This document shows positions 4,081 through 60,552 of a stretch of 64,000 nt of DNA, piece by piece. The stretch lies in the sequence record MZ234013.1. One strand, written 5' to 3'. Source of the stretch: Escherichia phage vB_EcoM-101112UKE3-1. A program made the translations under genes and the position numbers. The notes under the pieces were generated by a model. That model was not told the DNA's origin. It searched no databases and saw only the letters and a program-made list of their open reading frames with translations. How positions within the stretch are numbered: the stretch's first letter is position 1; every line of letters starts with the position of its first letter.

Positions 4081-4124
4081 ATGTCCTCCTTTAAATTAAT
4101 ATTTATCACAAATTTCATAAATTT

Positions 4125-4154
4125 GTTTACTTTCTCAGCTTGTTATGGTATTAT
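4125..4154 (+). promoter_or_regulatory. T4-type early promoter upstream of the 186-aa ORF/dam operon
   Basis: GTTTAC then 18 nt then TATTAT. Confidence 0.55.
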
Positions 4155-4179
4155 AAAATAAATTGCTGAGGATGATATA

Positions 4180-5519
<1,340 letters not shown>

Positions 5520-13771: not shown

Positions 13772-13801
13772 GTTTACTTCCTCGGTTAGTTGTGGTATTA
13801 T
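13772..13801 (+). promoter_or_regulatory. T4-type early promoter
   Basis: GTTTAC then 18 nt then TATTAT. Confidence 0.55.
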
Positions 13802-13828
13802 AACACCATAGCTACTGAGGATAATAAA

Positions 13829-14329
13829 ATGAAAATTTATCGTGTTGAATCATCGTTTAGTATTCTTGATTATGAAGATGCTATAACAATACGTCGAAAT
13901 CTTTGTGTTCAAATAACGCCGTACAGGAGTATAATAGATTCATGGAGCGAAGAGTGGCTATTACACGTAGGTTATGACAGACCTAATTTTATGCATCATA
14001 GCGATAATAATAAAAGAATTCCTTTACCACACGAAGATAAACTATTAGTTAAAAACGCTAATATAGTAATTAATACTAAGTTCAAGAAAGATTATGTTGG
14101 AGTAGAATATCATATTCCAGGATGGTTTATAGGTCTTTATCATTTTGCTTTCGCTAGTGAATATGATATGATGAGATGGTTCACACGAGAAGAGCGGGAA
14201 GAATTATCTTCTAAAGGATTTTATCTCGCTGTATACGAAGTTCCTGAAGATGAAGTTATCATTGGTGGGCACCAAGTAATGTTCCGCAAATCGCATGCTG
14301 AACTCGTAGATTTTATTGAAATGAGATAA
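13829..14329 (+). CDS. hypothetical protein (position of T4 motB), 166 aa
   Basis: ATG with GAGGA SD; track ORF starts upstream. Confidence 0.5.
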   Translation: MKIYRVESSFSILDYEDAITIRRNLCVQITPYRSIIDSWSEEWLLHVGYDRPNFMHHSDNNKRIPLPHEDKLLVKNANIVINTKFKKDYVGVEYHIPGWFIGLYHFAFASEYDMMRWFTREEREELSSKGFYLAVYEVPEDEVIIGGHQVMFRKSHAELVDFIEMR

Positions 14330-15475: not shown

Positions 15476-15519
15476 ATCAGTAGTTGATTATGGTACTATA
15501 TCAATATCAACTACTGATA
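15476..15519. repeat. 13-bp perfect inverted repeat (ATCAGTAGTTGAT / ATCAACTACTGAT) with 18-nt spacer
   Basis: Read directly from sequence in an intergenic region. Confidence 0.8.
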
Positions 15520-18954: not shown

Positions 18955-18983
18955 TTTACTTTACCACAAGGATGTGGTATAAT
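18954..18983 (+). promoter_or_regulatory. T4-type early promoter
   Basis: GTTTAC then 18 nt then TATAAT. Confidence 0.55.
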
Positions 18984-22659: not shown

Positions 22660-23217
22660 ATGCAGAAAACGAATCCGGGGTTACAGAGACTATTTCAGAT
22701 TCCGACATTTACCCTATCGAACAGTGACTTGACTAGTGAAATGAAGGTCAAAATTGCTGATACTGCAAGATACTCTTTAAAACAAAACCCGAACCAGGAT
22801 AAAGCAGAAGTTATTGAAAGATGTCGTATTGCTGTATACGCAGAGTTTTTTGTAGCAGATTGGCTAAGCGGGTATGTTAATAAAGGTCAAGAAGATGTCG
22901 ATGATCCATATACATACGCGTGGGATGTTTTAGCACATCCAAAATACTGTGGGCTTCGTGTAGAAGTTAAGACACATCAAACTGGCTCACGTTGGATTTC
23001 TGTAACAACAGGATGCAGCGGAGAGTATCCATACGGTTCTGGAATAAATCTAGGGCCCATTCTAAATCATCAAGTCGCTGACTGTATAATTATATTCAAC
23101 ACTAAAGAAATTCATCCAGGTGTTATCCAGTACACTCCGAAGTTCATCGGTGACAGAGAAGACCTTCGTAAGGTTGTAAGAAAAAGCAACTACAATGGAT
23201 GGTATCTTTCCATTTAA
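22660..23217 (+). CDS. denB: endonuclease IV (DenB), 185 aa
   Basis: 185 aa; position downstream of rIIB as in T4. Confidence 0.8.
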   Translation: MQKTNPGLQRLFQIPTFTLSNSDLTSEMKVKIADTARYSLKQNPNQDKAEVIERCRIAVYAEFFVADWLSGYVNKGQEDVDDPYTYAWDVLAHPKYCGLRVEVKTHQTGSRWISVTTGCSGEYPYGSGINLGPILNHQVADCIIIFNTKEIHPGVIQYTPKFIGDREDLRKVVRKSNYNGWYLSI

Positions 23218-23235
23218 AAAAATTTTCACAAAACA

Positions 23236-23265
23236 GTTTACATACCACAAGGACCGTGGTACTAT
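23236..23265 (+). promoter_or_regulatory. T4-type early promoter
   Basis: GTTTAC then 18 nt then TACTAT. Confidence 0.55.
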
Positions 23266-23292
23266 ACAACTATCAGCTACGGAGGAGTAAAA

Positions 23293-23556
23293 ATGAAATT
23301 TAAATTTTATTATGCTAAACATAAAATTACCGGTGAATTTATTGCATTTACGACTTCAACTACAGATGAAGGAGATATTTTTACTGCAGTATTTTTATCA
23401 AAATGGGAATCAGATCAACCTTACTTATCATCACGTGAAGATCTCCAACGATTAGTTAATGGAGAATATAATGATTCATGGTCATATTTAGTCCATGATT
23501 GTGTTAAAAAGGCAATAAAACAAAAACACTTGGAAATCGTTGAGATTGAACTATGA
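23293..23556 (+). CDS. hypothetical protein, 87 aa
   Basis: ORF with GGAGGAG SD. Confidence 0.5.
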   Translation: MKFKFYYAKHKITGEFIAFTTSTTDEGDIFTAVFLSKWESDQPYLSSREDLQRLVNGEYNDSWSYLVHDCVKKAIKQKHLEIVEIEL

Positions 23557-23589
23557 GTTCATTATGTTGGTGTTTTGTTTGGTTAATTA

Positions 23590-23699
23590 GTATTCCAGTA
23601 ATTTGTTTAACATTTACTTTTGTGATGAGGTTATTATGAAAATTGTATTCCAGTAATTTGTTTAACATTTACTTTTGTGATGAGGTTATTATGAAAATT
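23590..23699. repeat. perfect tandem duplication, 2 x 55 bp
   Basis: 23590..23644 is identical to 23645..23699. Confidence 0.9.
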
Positions 23700-23796: not shown

Positions 23797-23826
23797 GTTT
23801 ACAAGACTGTTCTTCCGTGGTACTAT
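23797..23826 (+). promoter_or_regulatory. T4-type early promoter
   Basis: GTTTAC then 18 nt then TACTAT. Confidence 0.55.
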
Positions 23827-23854
23827 TACCCTATCAACTACGGAGGAACAGAAA

Positions 23855-23968
23855 ATGAAAAAGATTGTTAAAGCTATATGGAATGTAGTTATAATACTAA
23901 TAGTTTTGAGTATATTCCCAATCGTTTTAATGATTGATGTATTAAACGTTTACTTTGGATTTATGTGA
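23855..23968 (+). CDS. small membrane protein, 37 aa
   Basis: ATG with GGAGGA SD; hydrophobic. Confidence 0.45.
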   Translation: MKKIVKAIWNVVIILIVLSIFPIVLMIDVLNVYFGFM

Positions 23969-26881: not shown

Positions 26882-26886
26882 TTTTA

Positions 26887-26913
26887 GGGAGAGCCTCGGC
26901 TCTCCCTTTTTTA
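26887..26913 (+). terminator. intrinsic terminator (GGGAGAGCC-TCG-GCTCTCCC + T6)
   Basis: Hairpin plus U tract. Confidence 0.75.
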
Positions 26914-26937
26914 TTTCAAAAATTTTTTCACAAAACG

Positions 26938-26967
26938 GTTTACAACCAAAGCATACTGTGGTACTAT
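26938..26967 (+). promoter_or_regulatory. T4-type early promoter
   Basis: GTTTAC then 18 nt then TACTAT. Confidence 0.55.
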
Positions 26968-27016
26968 ACAACTATCAAATAAATGAACTGAAACAAACAA
27001 CCCGGAGATACAAAAA

Positions 27017-27244
27017 ATGAAATTTAAAATCGAAAACGAAATCGTTAAAGCTAAAAATGCTCTGACTGCTAACAAACTGGTTGTAGATGGTATTGAATAT
27101 GATATCTGTGGAGTTCGTGAAGAAAAACCTGGTGTTCTGACTTTCTTCACAATGATTTTTAAATTTAAAGGTGACACAGAATTCAAACAGTTTGATTTTG
27201 CCCATGAAGACGAAATCGAAGTTCGTAATCTGAACATTAAGTAA
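27017..27244 (+). CDS. hypothetical protein, 75 aa
   Basis: ORF with GGAGA SD. Confidence 0.5.
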   Translation: MKFKIENEIVKAKNALTANKLVVDGIEYDICGVREEKPGVLTFFTMIFKFKGDTEFKQFDFAHEDEIEVRNLNIK

Positions 27245-27283
27245 GTACTTTATTAGAGCTCTTGAAAAAGAGTGCAAAAAAGT

Positions 27284-27312
27284 GTTTACTTCTGCTTTAA
27301 ACATGATACTAT
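27284..27312 (+). promoter_or_regulatory. T4-type early promoter
   Basis: GTTTAC then 17 nt then TACTAT. Confidence 0.55.
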
Positions 27313-27349
27313 AGACCTATCAAATAAATGAACTGAAACGGAGATTAAA

Positions 27350-27985
27350 ATGTCTAAAGTAACTTACATCATCAAAGCTTCTAACGATGTTCTGAATGAA
27401 AAAACTGCTGCGATTTTAATTACCATTGCTAAGAAAGATTTCATTACAGCTGCAGAAGTTCGTGAGGTGCATCCAGATTTAGGTAACGCAGTAGTTAATA
27501 GTAATATTGGGGTATTGATTAAAAAAGGCCTGGTGGAGAAATCTGGTGATGGATTAATCATTACAGGTGAAGCTCAAGATATTATTTCAAACGCAGCAAC
27601 TTTATACGCGCAGGAAAATGCTCCGGAACTACTGAAAAAACGAGCAACTCGTAAAGCTCGTGAGATTACTTCTGATATGGAAGAAGATAAAGACCTCATG
27701 TTAAAACTTTTAGATGAAAATGGATTTGTTCTTAAAAAGGTTGAAACTTATCGTAGTAATTATCTTGCCATTTTAGAAAAACGCACTCACGGAATTCGTA
27801 ATTTTGAAATTAACAATAATGGAAATATGCGAATTTTTGGATACAAAATGATGGAACATCATATTCAGAAATTTACTGATATCGGAATGTCATGTAAAAT
27901 CGCTAAAAACGGTAATGTGTATCTTGACATTAAACGCTCGGCAGAAAACATTGAAGCTGTAATCACTGTAGCATCTGAACTGTGA
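27350..27985 (+). CDS. motA: MotA middle-transcription activator, 211 aa
   Basis: Sequence and length match T4 MotA. Confidence 0.9.
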   Translation: MSKVTYIIKASNDVLNEKTAAILITIAKKDFITAAEVREVHPDLGNAVVNSNIGVLIKKGLVEKSGDGLIITGEAQDIISNAATLYAQENAPELLKKRATRKAREITSDMEEDKDLMLKLLDENGFVLKKVETYRSNYLAILEKRTHGIRNFEINNNGNMRIFGYKMMEHHIQKFTDIGMSCKIAKNGNVYLDIKRSAENIEAVITVASEL

Positions 27986-43550: not shown

Positions 43551-43573
43551 TAGATTATATTACTAATTAATTG

Positions 43574-43601
43574 GGGACCCTAGAGGTCCCCTTTTTTATT
43601 T
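43574..43601 (+). terminator. intrinsic terminator (GGGGACC-CTAGA-GGTCCCC + T-rich)
   Basis: Hairpin plus U tract. Confidence 0.75.
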
Positions 43602-43621
43602 TAAAAATTTTTCACAAAACT

Positions 43622-43651
43622 GTTTACATCCTTGTTCTTCCATGGTACTAT
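43622..43651 (+). promoter_or_regulatory. T4-type early promoter
   Basis: GTTTAC then 18 nt then TACTAT. Confidence 0.55.
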
Positions 43652-43694
43652 ACAACTATCGGCAATACTGCTGATGATTAAAGAGGAAAACAAT

Positions 43695-43967: not shown

Positions 43968-44354
43968 ATGGAAATCGGCAAAAAATACGAGTTAAATCCA
44001 CACCGTATTAAATCTTTCATTGATATTAGTTCATCAAATGCTAATATGGTTGGCATCATTCAAGAAAATGGTGGTTGGTTTGAAGTTAAATCAATATCAA
44101 GTTTAGATGGCTTTGATTATGTAACTGAAATCATTTGTGCTAATGGCGAAATCTATAATGATGATGGTATGGGTGATGATTATTTTGAACTTAGTGAAGA
44201 AGAGTTTTATTGTTTCCGCGAGTATAAAGAACCGACTTCTGAAGAAGATGAAGTCAAAGACAAGGTTTCTGGCGTAACAAAAATTCACTGCATTGTTGAC
44301 GAAAACAATGTAGATGAAATCATTGAACTTTTGCGAAAAACTTTCAAAAAGTAG
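43968..44354 (+). CDS. hypothetical protein, 128 aa
   Basis: ATG with GAGGA SD. Confidence 0.5.
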   Translation: MEIGKKYELNPHRIKSFIDISSSNANMVGIIQENGGWFEVKSISSLDGFDYVTEIICANGEIYNDDGMGDDYFELSEEEFYCFREYKEPTSEEDEVKDKVSGVTKIHCIVDENNVDEIIELLRKTFKK

Positions 44355-44383
44355 TTTACAGAAGGGTAGTAGTGTGATACTAT
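44354..44383 (+). promoter_or_regulatory. T4-type early promoter
   Basis: GTTTAC then 18 nt then TACTAT. Confidence 0.5.
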
Positions 44384-44413
44384 TACCCTATCAAAACTAA
44401 TGGAGAAAAGAAA

Positions 44414-53304: not shown

Positions 53305-53334
53305 GTTTACAAGTCCCTCGTGTTGTGTTATAGT
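53305..53334 (+). promoter_or_regulatory. T4-type early promoter
   Basis: GTTTAC then 18 nt then TATAGT. Confidence 0.55.
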
Positions 53335-53365
53335 AGTCTTACTGACATAACATGAGGACTTTATG

Positions 53366-56684: not shown

Positions 56685-57212
56685 ATGAGCGAATGGTTTG
56701 AAGAAGATAAGGTTTATCGCTTTAAAACTGGGTATAAAGATATTTTTAATGAAACTTGCGGGGCTAATAAACGAATTGCCCAGTTTATTGGGGAAAATTC
56801 ATTTAAAGTAAAAATAGATCCTGCGAAAAATGTTATTAGCATTAAACGCGAAATTGATGACTGCTGGTATAAAGCTGTTGATGTAATGGGCGAATCCTAT
56901 AAAGTTAGCCCGTTATTTTCAATTGCTTATATGTTAGAATATTCTTTTTTCGAAGAAGTTCAAAAAGATGATTCTGCCAGTAAATTTGAAATTAAAACTG
57001 ATAAAGAAATTAAGTGGAAAGTAGTAGGTATTACTGGTTGTATGTTTTATATCTATGCTCAAACTGATACGAAGGAAGAAGCTAAAAATAAAGCTCTAGA
57101 ATATCTTGAAGAGTATGAAGAAGGTCCGGTAATGATTACTCAAGATGCTGAATTAGTTTCTGTCAAATTAGTTAAAAACGTTGAAAGTAAGGAGCTGGGA
57201 TCAACATGCTAA
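56685..57212 (+). CDS. hypothetical protein, 175 aa
   Basis: ORF with GAGGA SD. Confidence 0.5.
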   Translation: MSEWFEEDKVYRFKTGYKDIFNETCGANKRIAQFIGENSFKVKIDPAKNVISIKREIDDCWYKAVDVMGESYKVSPLFSIAYMLEYSFFEEVQKDDSASKFEIKTDKEIKWKVVGITGCMFYIYAQTDTKEEAKNKALEYLEEYEEGPVMITQDAELVSVKLVKNVESKELGSTC

Positions 57213-60162: not shown

Positions 60163-60192
60163 GTTTACAGTACGGTTCCTTTGTGATAGTAT
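60163..60192 (+). promoter_or_regulatory. T4-type early promoter
   Basis: GTTTAC then 18 nt then TAGTAT. Confidence 0.5.
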
Positions 60193-60219
60193 TATCTTAC
60201 ACAAACAAAGGAGAATAAA

Positions 60220-60552
60220 ATGAAAACGATTAATCTGAACGCTACAGTTAAAACTAAATGCTTCAATGGTAAATATGATGAAACTATGTGGTTCTTAATG
60301 GCAGTTGAAGGTGATATTATTGAAGTAGAAACAACAGAAGGTATGGGAACAGATTTCACCTTTACAATCCAAGTTCATAATTTCTTTACTGGTTGGATTT
60401 ATGAATTGAATACAGTAATCGTTGGAAAAATTGAACAAAATGAATTAGGTGAATGGTATTATGTTACAGCTCGCCAACGTGCCGAACGCTTAATTGAGAA
60501 GATGAAAAAAGTTGGTAAACTTGACATGAAGCATTGGAAAGTAGTAAAATAA
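60220..60552 (+). CDS. hypothetical protein, 110 aa
   Basis: ORF with GGAGAA SD. Confidence 0.5.
   Translation: MKTINLNATVKTKCFNGKYDETMWFLMAVEGDIIEVETTEGMGTDFTFTIQVHNFFTGWIYELNTVIVGKIEQNELGEWYYVTARQRAERLIEKMKKVGKLDMKHWKVVK

Follow-up and report, generated by a model that had tools for sequence, protein, structure and literature searches.

The early promoters of T4 are UP/-35/TGn/-10 promoters with additional consensus regions (Hinton 2010, PMC2988021), and early-promoter logos have been published for several genera (Nolan et al. 2006, PMC1524935). The closest described systems are the PeSLs (promoter-early stem-loop cassettes), which were defined in RB49 and phi1, where mini-circles have their crossovers between the -10 element and the ATG and where the shuffling of cassettes was proposed (Arbiol et al. 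2010, PMC2839356). A later paper added T4 and PST, gave the consensus as TTTACW-N17-TAYWAT, and took an example from the ndd region (Comeau et al. 2014, PMC4122927). The T-even internal-protein (IP) loci (Repoila et al. 1994), as far as their citation in PMC2839356 describes them, are similar in that early-promoter-based repeats bracket variable small genes and shuffling was proposed. Integron gene cassettes are a functional analogy only, in that small ORF cassettes next to a promoter come and go at short conserved sites.

The motA locus described here, in which a small gene (orfX) and a second promoter have been added next to a T4-like one, compares closely with these systems. Its promoters share with those of T4 the A/T-rich UP element, the G-TTTAC(A/T) -35 element, the 17-nt spacer, the TGn, and a -10 element of the form TA(C/T)(T/A)AT, and nothing essential differs. 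The likeness to PeSLs lies in the succession of terminator-like stem-loop, A/T-rich region, early promoter, Shine-Dalgarno sequence, and ATG, and in the small variable ORFs that these modules flank. Cassette gain or loss with a chimeric module, by which PeSLs are recognised, is found here as well: orfX is present in some relatives and absent from others, and one junction lies in the motif CTATCAA. Unlike the published PeSLs, the exchange of orfX needs two crossovers and looks inter-genus (Dhakavirus to Tequatrovirus), and one of the promoters discussed below (23215-23278) has no stem-loop. The motA case differs from the IP loci, as they are cited in PMC2839356, in locus and in genes. It differs from integrons in having no integrase and no attC or attI; exchange works instead at regulatory motifs, through general recombination or microhomology, and each cassette has its own promoter. 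The recombination reading is thus right but already published under the name of PeSLs (Arbiol et al. 2010; Comeau et al. 2014). There is no mention of motA in the main text of PMC4122927, and the example may be undescribed, though it would only add one more case to a known kind. The repeats are real and biologically meaningful and belong to a class already explained; the finding matters mainly as a check.

The window, by which we mean the whole 64,000-nt stretch of DNA analysed, comes from a Tequatrovirus. Escherichia phage KarlGJung (Tequatrovirus) matches its segment 26000-28500 at 100% identity, and at least 80% of that segment is covered by 479 Tequatrovirus-type phage records. Over the whole window, the identity to KarlGJung is about 97%, that of a close relative but a different phage, and the window has an extra 55-nt duplication. 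Gene names and positions were assigned by alignment to T4 (NC_000866); the plus strand of the window is the early, counter-clockwise strand of T4. The order on the plus strand is rIIA, rIIB, denB, the ndd cluster, ac, 52, motA.1, motA, arn, and asiA, followed by tail-fibre genes on the opposite strand and then by rnh, 32, frd.3-frd, td, and nrd. Rfam gave no match in the leaders, the td intron being its only match in the window, and our literature search found no usable genome-wide transcription-start data for T4.

Scanning the plus strand for G-TTTACN, 16-18 nt, and TAnnnT gave 22 convincing early-promoter candidates with the consensus tttcA.AaA.ttGTTTAC-N17-TGgTAttATA. Their UP elements are A/T-rich AAAAATTTTTTCACAAAAC blocks at about -40 to -60, with the family consensus aaAa..tttcA.AaA. 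Direct T4 orthologues exist for 20 of the 22, at 88-100% identity over 120 nt (97-100% for most). The following features are those at which repeated blocks had been noticed, together with the stem-loop that precedes one of them.

23215-23278, plus strand: early promoter after denB, -35 at 23237-23242 and -10 at 23260-23265, without an upstream stem-loop in our scan.
23797-23837, plus strand: early promoter before an ndd.4-type ORF, -10 at 23821-23826, carrying TACTATTACCCTATCAA.
26886-26907, plus strand: intrinsic-terminator stem-loop after a small motA.1-type ORF, the stem-loop half of a PeSL.
26915-26978, plus strand: PmotA-type early promoter, with an A/T-rich UP block, -35 G-TTTACA at 26938-26944, a 17-nt spacer, TGn at 26959-26961, -10 TACTAT at 26962-26967, and the start region ACAACTATCAA.
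43573-43661, plus strand: gene 32 terminator stem-loop (43573-43591) and early promoter for a frd.3-type ORF, -35 at 43623-43628 and -10 at 43646-43651.
44354-44394, plus strand: early promoter before a frd.1-type ORF, -10 at 44378-44383, carrying TACTATTACCCTATCAA.

The five promoters spanning 23237-23265, 26939-26967, 43623-43651, 23798-23826, and 44355-44383 have 17-nt spacers, a sixth (27285-27312) has a 16-nt spacer, and all six have the TGn. The modules end in a Shine-Dalgarno sequence and a start codon: GGAG and ATG before orfX (27018) and motA (27350), GGAGG or GAGG and ATG before the ORFs at 23293 and 43687. Judged by these motifs, the named blocks are sigma-70-dependent T4-type early promoters of the strong UP/-35/TGn/-10 class. 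A preliminary description of this DNA had reported a block common to about 23821 and 44378, and we find TACTATTACCCTATCAA at exactly 23821-23837 and 44378-44394, on the plus strand; like the two other repeat sets described below, it goes far beyond chance. The two promoters that carry it are orthologous to those before ndd.4 and frd.1 in T4.

The same description had reported a block of about 60 bp at three sites, which are the promoters with -10 elements at 23260, 26962, and 43646. The three copies are real, all lie on the plus strand, and exceed chance, but their identity is not continuous. What had been taken for one block is a UP/-35 sub-block of about 23 nt and a TGn/-10/+1 sub-block of 18 nt, separated by a spacer at background identity. 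The downstream sub-block, the 18-mer TGGTACTATACAACTATC, is exact at 23257-23274, 26959-26976, and 43643-43660 (plus strand); dinucleotide shuffles contain a mean of 0.01 matches to it, and three copies were reached in 0 of 100 shuffles. The upstream sub-block, AAATTTTCACAAAACNGTTTACA, occurs at 23220-23242, 26922-26944, and 43606-43628, with 0, 2, and 1 mismatches respectively. Over 63 aligned columns, the copies have 73-78% pairwise identity (family mean, 49.5%), which makes them the top three of the 231 pairs that the 22 candidates form. A position-weight null predicts 29 +/- 3.7 matches where 46-49 are seen (z = 4.6-5.5). By region, the pairwise identity is 23-25 of 30 positions in the UP element, 6 of 6 in the -35 hexamer, 9-10 of 10 in the TGn and -10, and 9-11 of 12 downstream, while the spacer core, with 4 of 13, is at the family background of 0.30. 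The conserved blocks are all within the RNA polymerase footprint (UP, -35, TGn/-10, and start region) and the non-contact spacer is not conserved. Since the conserved parts are those that RNA polymerase touches, we suggest that they are kept alike by selection for strong early transcription. The reservation in the preliminary description, that conservation over tens of base pairs is expected of T4 early promoters, was correct and accounts for most of the similarity.

All three copies are orthologous to T4 promoters (denB>ndd.6, PmotA, and 32>frd.3), the first of them to the promoter with its -10 near T4 coordinate 167062, and in T4 itself PmotA and the frd.3 promoter have 37 identical nucleotides upstream and 18 around the -10. 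The PmotA-type promoter equals T4 PmotA at every base of 26926-26978, the only mismatch in the module being C for T at 26925, and GenBank entry Z48569 annotates the T4 PmotA -35 (GTTTACA) and -10 (TACTAT) at exactly the corresponding bases. The other promoters listed above as counterparts of T4 promoters have 88-98% identity to them over 120 nt. Two of the three copies lie directly 3' of a strong terminator hairpin (26886-26907, z = -5.0; 43573-43591, z = -2.3), and at both sites the T-tail of the hairpin extends into the UP element, which is the PeSL architecture. The hairpin before the PmotA-type promoter has a 9-bp stem with six G-C pairs, followed by a T run, and an RNA fold of -18.6 kcal/mol; its sequence is kept in T4.

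Downstream of the PmotA-type promoter, the window departs from T4, and the features on which our argument turns are these.

26972-26994, plus strand: first copy of the leader block, its first seven nucleotides CTATCAA (26972-26978) being the proposed left crossover interval.
27018-27245, plus strand: orfX (75 aa), cargo of the cassette; phrog_10955, of unknown function, absent from T4.
27258-27273, plus strand: decayed stem-loop before the second promoter; fold -6.7 kcal/mol, z = -1.0.
27284-27339, plus strand: second early promoter, of Dhakavirus type, with G-TTTACT, a 16-nt spacer, TGA, and -10 TACTAT at 27307-27312.
27317-27339, plus strand: second copy of the leader block, following the second promoter and included in the stretch given for it.
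27340-27358, plus strand: motA translation initiation region, with a GGAG Shine-Dalgarno sequence and ATG at 27350 (motA, 27350-27985).

The block shared by the two leaders had also been noticed in the preliminary description; the repeat itself is confirmed, although the copies had been placed 1-6 nt from where they lie. CTATCAAATAAATGAACTGAAAC is exact at 26972-26994 and 27317-27339, with 0 copies expected by chance, and the full leader repeat is 36 nt long at 92% identity (26959-26994 versus 27304-27339), the copies being direct repeats 345 bp apart. T4 has at this locus a single module, which reads terminator, PmotA, leader CTACTGATACAGAATTAC, GGAG, and motA. The window has PmotA, leader ATAAATGAACTGAAAC, orfX, the decayed stem-loop, the promoter with the 16-nt spacer, the same leader, GGAG, and motA, so that the cassette amounts to about 370 extra bp, consisting of the 75-aa ORF and the second promoter. 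From this order, the second promoter probably serves motA in this phage, while the PmotA-type promoter would now drive orfX. The match of orfX to its PHROG has E = 1e-48, and a comparison with Pfam gave no match. The gene is found in 167 phage records; its protein is 98.7% identical to the homologue in Dhakavirus JS10, in Merlin (Moonvirus) it also lies between gene 52 and motA, and in Jiaodavirus and Gelderlandvirus phages it has other gene contexts.

Comparison with JS10 locates both junctions. From gene 52 through the intergenic region, window and JS10 are 37-82% identical; the identity rises to 97-100% across 26971-27249, continues at 87-100% up to 27369, drops to 50-85% just past the motA initiation region, and is 32-85% across motA. 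On the left side, three-way alignments show that the window equals T4 through TACTATACAACTATCAA (JS10: TACTATAGACCTATCAA) and from 26979 matches JS10 and not T4, which places the left exchange in CTATCAA (26972-26978), a stretch that contains the expected start nucleotide. On the right side, the window equals JS10 up to the ATG (GGAGATTAAAATG; T4: GGAGATTAGAAAATG) and T4 from codon 4 of motA, which places the right exchange within 27347-27358. In JS10, orfX lies between two copies of one promoter-plus-leader unit, spacer included. With the motA promoter of JS10, the second promoter of the window shares about 95% identity (100% from the -35 hexamer through the leader), and it has both marks of the JS10 promoter style, the 16-nt spacer and the ATGATACTATAGACCTATCAA block; we therefore suggest that the donor was Dhakavirus-like. 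The stem-loop corresponding to 27258-27273 is intact in JS10, with an 8-bp stem and a fold of -13.1 kcal/mol (z = -3.7). The JS10-like island is present in more than 100 independent genomes, which makes an artefact of assembly or annotation unlikely.

In the end, we favour, with a probability of roughly 85%, the reading in which early promoters are conserved through their contact with the polymerase and double as crossover points, the repeat at motA being the footprint of a cassette exchange. Selection for strong early transcription would keep the polymerase-contacted parts alike. Early regions have otherwise diverged, and the promoters, as their only well-conserved islands, would serve as crossover points in co-infection. 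Over time, promoters within a lineage would become more uniform and small gene cassettes would be moved between genomes. At motA, the ancestor would have been T4-like (terminator, PmotA, leader, motA) and would have gained about 370 bp from a Dhakavirus-like phage, comprising leader, orfX, stem-loop, second promoter, and the same leader again, by a left exchange in CTATCAA at the transcription start and a right exchange in the Shine-Dalgarno and start-codon region of motA. We infer that this happened while two phages shared a cell, by a double crossover or as a conversion patch, and that both promoters are active. The homology on the left is short, however, with only 7 exact nucleotides inside 17 nt containing two mismatches, and this junction could owe its origin to microhomology-mediated joining rather than to homologous exchange. 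As the junctions lie at the transcription start and the start codon, the incoming gene would arrive pre-wired for early expression and motA would keep a promoter. The motA locus illustrates the PeSL idea cleanly in a natural genome, and such junctions are useful as markers for following genes as they move between T4-like phages, therapeutic phages among them.

A synthetic junction, in which the DNA between the leader copies is deleted, was used as a query against the phage collection. With the long query, most Tequatroviruses, including T4, align in one piece and a minority in two pieces that lie about 345 bp further apart; the one-piece alignment of T4-type genomes arises because their leader differs by only a few bases. 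The short query distinguishes 116 records with the cassette (95-99% band) from about 390 with the T4 single module (90-95% band). No record in the collection aligned with the short query in one piece at 99% or more, as the simple product of recombination between the leader repeats would.

The alternative that survives best, though we consider it unlikely, has the cassette excised in the donor as a PeSL mini-circle between its flanking promoter modules and integrated into the resident PmotA by a single crossover. The two near-identical promoter-plus-leader repeats that flank orfX in JS10 are a substrate for an excising circle, and such circles were detected experimentally in RB49 and phi1 (PMC2839356). 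A mini-circle route, or ongoing excision, would give the junction TGGTACTATACAACTATCAAATAAATGAACTGAAACGGAGATTAAAATG. A single crossover at CTATCAA would, however, leave the T4 leader CTACTGATACAGAATTAC in front of motA, where the window has the JS10-type leader and GGAGATTAAAATG; a second exchange at the start of motA is therefore needed.

The comparison of loci and of related genomes bears on a further alternative, convergence, according to which each module was selected toward the same optimal promoter and no recombination took place between modules. Convergence would account for the coincidence of the conserved columns with the polymerase contact zones and for spacers that, in the three copies, are at background, and the 97-100% identity of most promoters to their T4 orthologues speaks for stable vertical inheritance. 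It fails on a transcribed leader of 23 identical nucleotides, on an island of about 400 bp that is 97-100% identical to another genus and ends inside a promoter, and on shared spacer strings of 9 and 11 nt and the occurrence of the same spacer type on different genes across genomes. The spacer 11-mer TACCACAAGGA is common to the promoters with -10 elements at 18978 and 23260, and the 9-mer TGTTCTTCC to those at 23821 and 43646; a longest shared run of 11 nt was reached in 0 of 2000 shuffles and two pairs at 9 nt likewise in 0 of 2000. Between the 43646 promoter and its T4 orthologue, the differences cluster in a 13-nt patch of the spacer, in which the palindrome CATAAAGCTTTATG of T4 corresponds to CCTTGTTCTTCCATG in the window. 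We consider convergence alone quite improbable.

The UP/-35, spacer, -10/+1, and leader sub-blocks are combined differently at different loci in related genomes. A search of IMG/VR with GTTTAC-N18-TACTATACAACTATC returned 30 copies of the -10/+1 block on 9 contigs, with up to 8 loci per genome, and identical spacer types are attached there to different leaders and genes. In these genomes, the T4 frd.3-type spacer stands before other genes, and a spacer of the TGTTCTTCC type is found in their frd.3 promoter; their counterpart of the ndd.4 promoter reads ACAACTATC in place of the TACCCTATC common to the window and T4. Paralogous promoters of T4 are more alike (UP 0.83, downstream 0.89) than are T4-JS10 orthologues (0.53 and 0.67), and the orthologues score no better than non-orthologues, that is, the promoters cluster by genome and not by locus (three loci, two genomes). 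Taken together, these sequence patterns indicate exchange among promoter copies, not convergence alone. The preliminary description had proposed that the modules are recombination substrates that shuffle early-gene cassettes; both the junctions of the orfX cassette and the combinations of sub-blocks across related genomes support it. What the sequences themselves show is which promoters these are, that the junctions are chimeric, and that sub-blocks are mixed among loci.

It had also been suggested that the repeats are shared binding sites, and the extended blocks (CACAAAAC upstream and CTATCAA at the start) could in principle be bound by a regulator of their own, from phage or host, such as an early-promoter shut-off factor. 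The mechanism of early-promoter shut-off is unsolved (PMC2988021, PMC3014915), and the blocks are lineage-specific, the T4 type and the JS10 type differing even though both phages use Escherichia coli RNA polymerase. Against this, the blocks contain no operator-like inverted or direct repeat, no candidate protein was identified, all of them fall within the -60 to +10 footprint of the polymerase, and only a subset of the 22 promoters carries them. The proposal finds no support beyond RNA polymerase itself and seems to us very improbable; being compatible with the exchange reading, a regulator would not exclude it.

Had the motA promoter region been duplicated in tandem in this lineage, and had orfX arisen or been inserted later between the copies, direct repeats 345 bp apart such as the 36-nt, 92% identical pair seen here would result, but the two promoters differ in type (17- versus 16-nt spacer, unrelated UP and spacer sequences), and we reject this origin on the three-way alignment, in which the upstream promoter is that of T4 and the downstream promoter and orfX are those of JS10.

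Between the window and T4, there are about 17 insertion, deletion, or replacement events. Event boundaries fall at a promoter or leader in 2-3 of these, and a rough binomial estimate (P about 0.13-0.22) gives no significant enrichment in this window-T4 comparison. A boundary inside a promoter-like element is found only for the orfX cassette and for one other, and a further event lies next to a promoter.

4113-4652: cassette of a promoter and a 186-aa ORF, bounded by ATC(A/G)CAAA.
56688-57206: event between the Shine-Dalgarno sequence of a promoter and the next ATG.

The remaining events concern seg and mob genes (homing endonucleases), introns, or tail-fibre genes, or are intragenic. The difference at 23284-23530, considered as promoter-associated, was rejected, as it is an internal ORF deletion in T4 that left an 8-codon remnant. 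Given the lack of significant enrichment, a role of the promoters in recombination rests on the specific junctions and on the published work, and not on this comparison.

A separate observation concerns translation. In five of 21 window promoters (23821, 13796, 53329, 60187, and 4149), the spacer is predicted to be strongly complementary to the downstream Shine-Dalgarno region, with duplex energies of -11 to -23 kcal/mol (-4 to -7 kcal/mol for shuffled spacers) and folds of z = -2.1 to -5.9; for the 23821 promoter, the fold that pairs spacer and Shine-Dalgarno region has -22.7 kcal/mol and z = -5.1. The three modules of the preliminary description have no such pairing (folds of z = +0.6 to -1.1). 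Before alc, the complementarity is found in six of seven genera, with a different sequence in each (ATCTCCGTTTAGTT/AACTAAACGGAGAT and TCCTCATTTCGTT/AACGAAATGAGGA are examples) and folds of z = -3.2 to -5.7; single-sequence folds were used for the alc promoters across genera, since indels shift the alignment register. That a promoter can lie inside a hairpin is known from e, soc, 49, and I-TevI, whose promoters of this kind are late ones (PMC3014915), and we found no early-promoter case of an anti-Shine-Dalgarno spacer in the literature searched, which did not cover older T4 papers. We tentatively suggest, as a possibility that has a fair chance of being wrong, that some early-promoter modules may also control translation, the spacer between -35 and -10 acting as an anti-Shine-Dalgarno sequence. 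In read-through transcripts from upstream, the following gene would stay silent; transcripts begun at the local promoter would lack the 5' arm of the hairpin and would be translated. If this is so, the promoter-inside-hairpin principle extends from late to early promoters, and only those spacer-leader combinations that still pair would survive the shuffling of modules, a constraint on mosaicism.

The Shine-Dalgarno region of alc is complementary to the -35/-10 spacer of its own early promoter (window 53305-53365). When the window sequence was compared with stretches from other phages (L045, L046, L048, L050 and L011), the predicted pairing between spacer and Shine-Dalgarno region was found to be retained in six of seven genera, with a sequence that differs from genus to genus. 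The folds at these alc promoters have z-scores of -3.2 to -5.7 and energies between -17.6 and -25.4 kcal/mol. The alc Shine-Dalgarno sequence would be masked in read-through RNA, and transcripts that begin at the local promoter would be without the hairpin's 5' arm. At four further early promoters, listed here, the spacer is likewise predicted to pair with the Shine-Dalgarno region of the gene that follows (z = -2.1 to -5.9).

Early promoters with predicted pairing between spacer and Shine-Dalgarno region
4125-4186, plus strand, early promoter with spacer/Shine-Dalgarno pairing
13772-13836, plus strand, early promoter with spacer/Shine-Dalgarno pairing
23797-23862, plus strand, early promoter with spacer/Shine-Dalgarno pairing
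60163-60226, plus strand, early promoter with spacer/Shine-Dalgarno pairing

At several other early promoters, the -10 is bracketed by inverted repeats; examples are repeats of 9 nt at the promoter with its -10 at 1215 and of 13 nt at that with its -10 at 15494. The T4 promoter between gene 32 and frd.3 has a spacer (146857-146873) that consists of a 14-nt palindrome, CATAAAGCTTTATG; other sequence replaces this palindrome in the window (43629-43642), and the flanks are almost identical.

Ahead of dam, the window carries a cassette (4113-4740) that is composed of an early promoter and a 186-aa ORF, is edged by ATC(A/G)CAAA and is missing from T4. The stop codon of the ORF overlaps the dam start codon (4740). 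The ORF has no match in NCBIfam or the PDB. Against PF04556, the family of the DpnII (GATC) restriction endonuclease, it scores 16.8 bits (E = 0.0045), below the cut-off of 23. On this weak similarity, it might possibly be a nuclease partner of Dam. A 175-aa ORF (56685-57212; phrog_3710, unknown function) is an insertion relative to T4 that separates the start codon of cd.2 from the Shine-Dalgarno sequence in the leader of the cd.2 promoter, and itself supplies a new Shine-Dalgarno sequence for cd.2.

Downstream of the denB promoter, the window has an 87-aa ORF (23293-23556), whose T4 counterpart (167039-167018) is an eight-codon remnant, MKIAEIEL. The remnant joins the start of the ORF to its end, so it is T4 that has undergone an internal deletion. 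A 55-nt tandem duplication (23585-23694, 96% identical), absent from both T4 and the relative KarlGJung, takes in the end of the ndd.6-type ORF (its 3' part) as well as the beginning of the small ORF that follows.

In Citrobacter phage PhiZZ23 (L004, 560-870), the 3' end of motA.1 and its terminator are tandemly duplicated (about 127 bp), with the junction within the A/T-rich UP region of PmotA. In Yersinia phage ZN18 (L038, 1380-1515), a 42-nt deletion ahead of orfX, the 75-aa ORF that lies between gene 52 and motA in the window, takes out the 3' arm of the terminator together with the UP element and -35 of the promoter that precedes orfX; with these removed, orfX should be transcribed there by read-through from gene 52.
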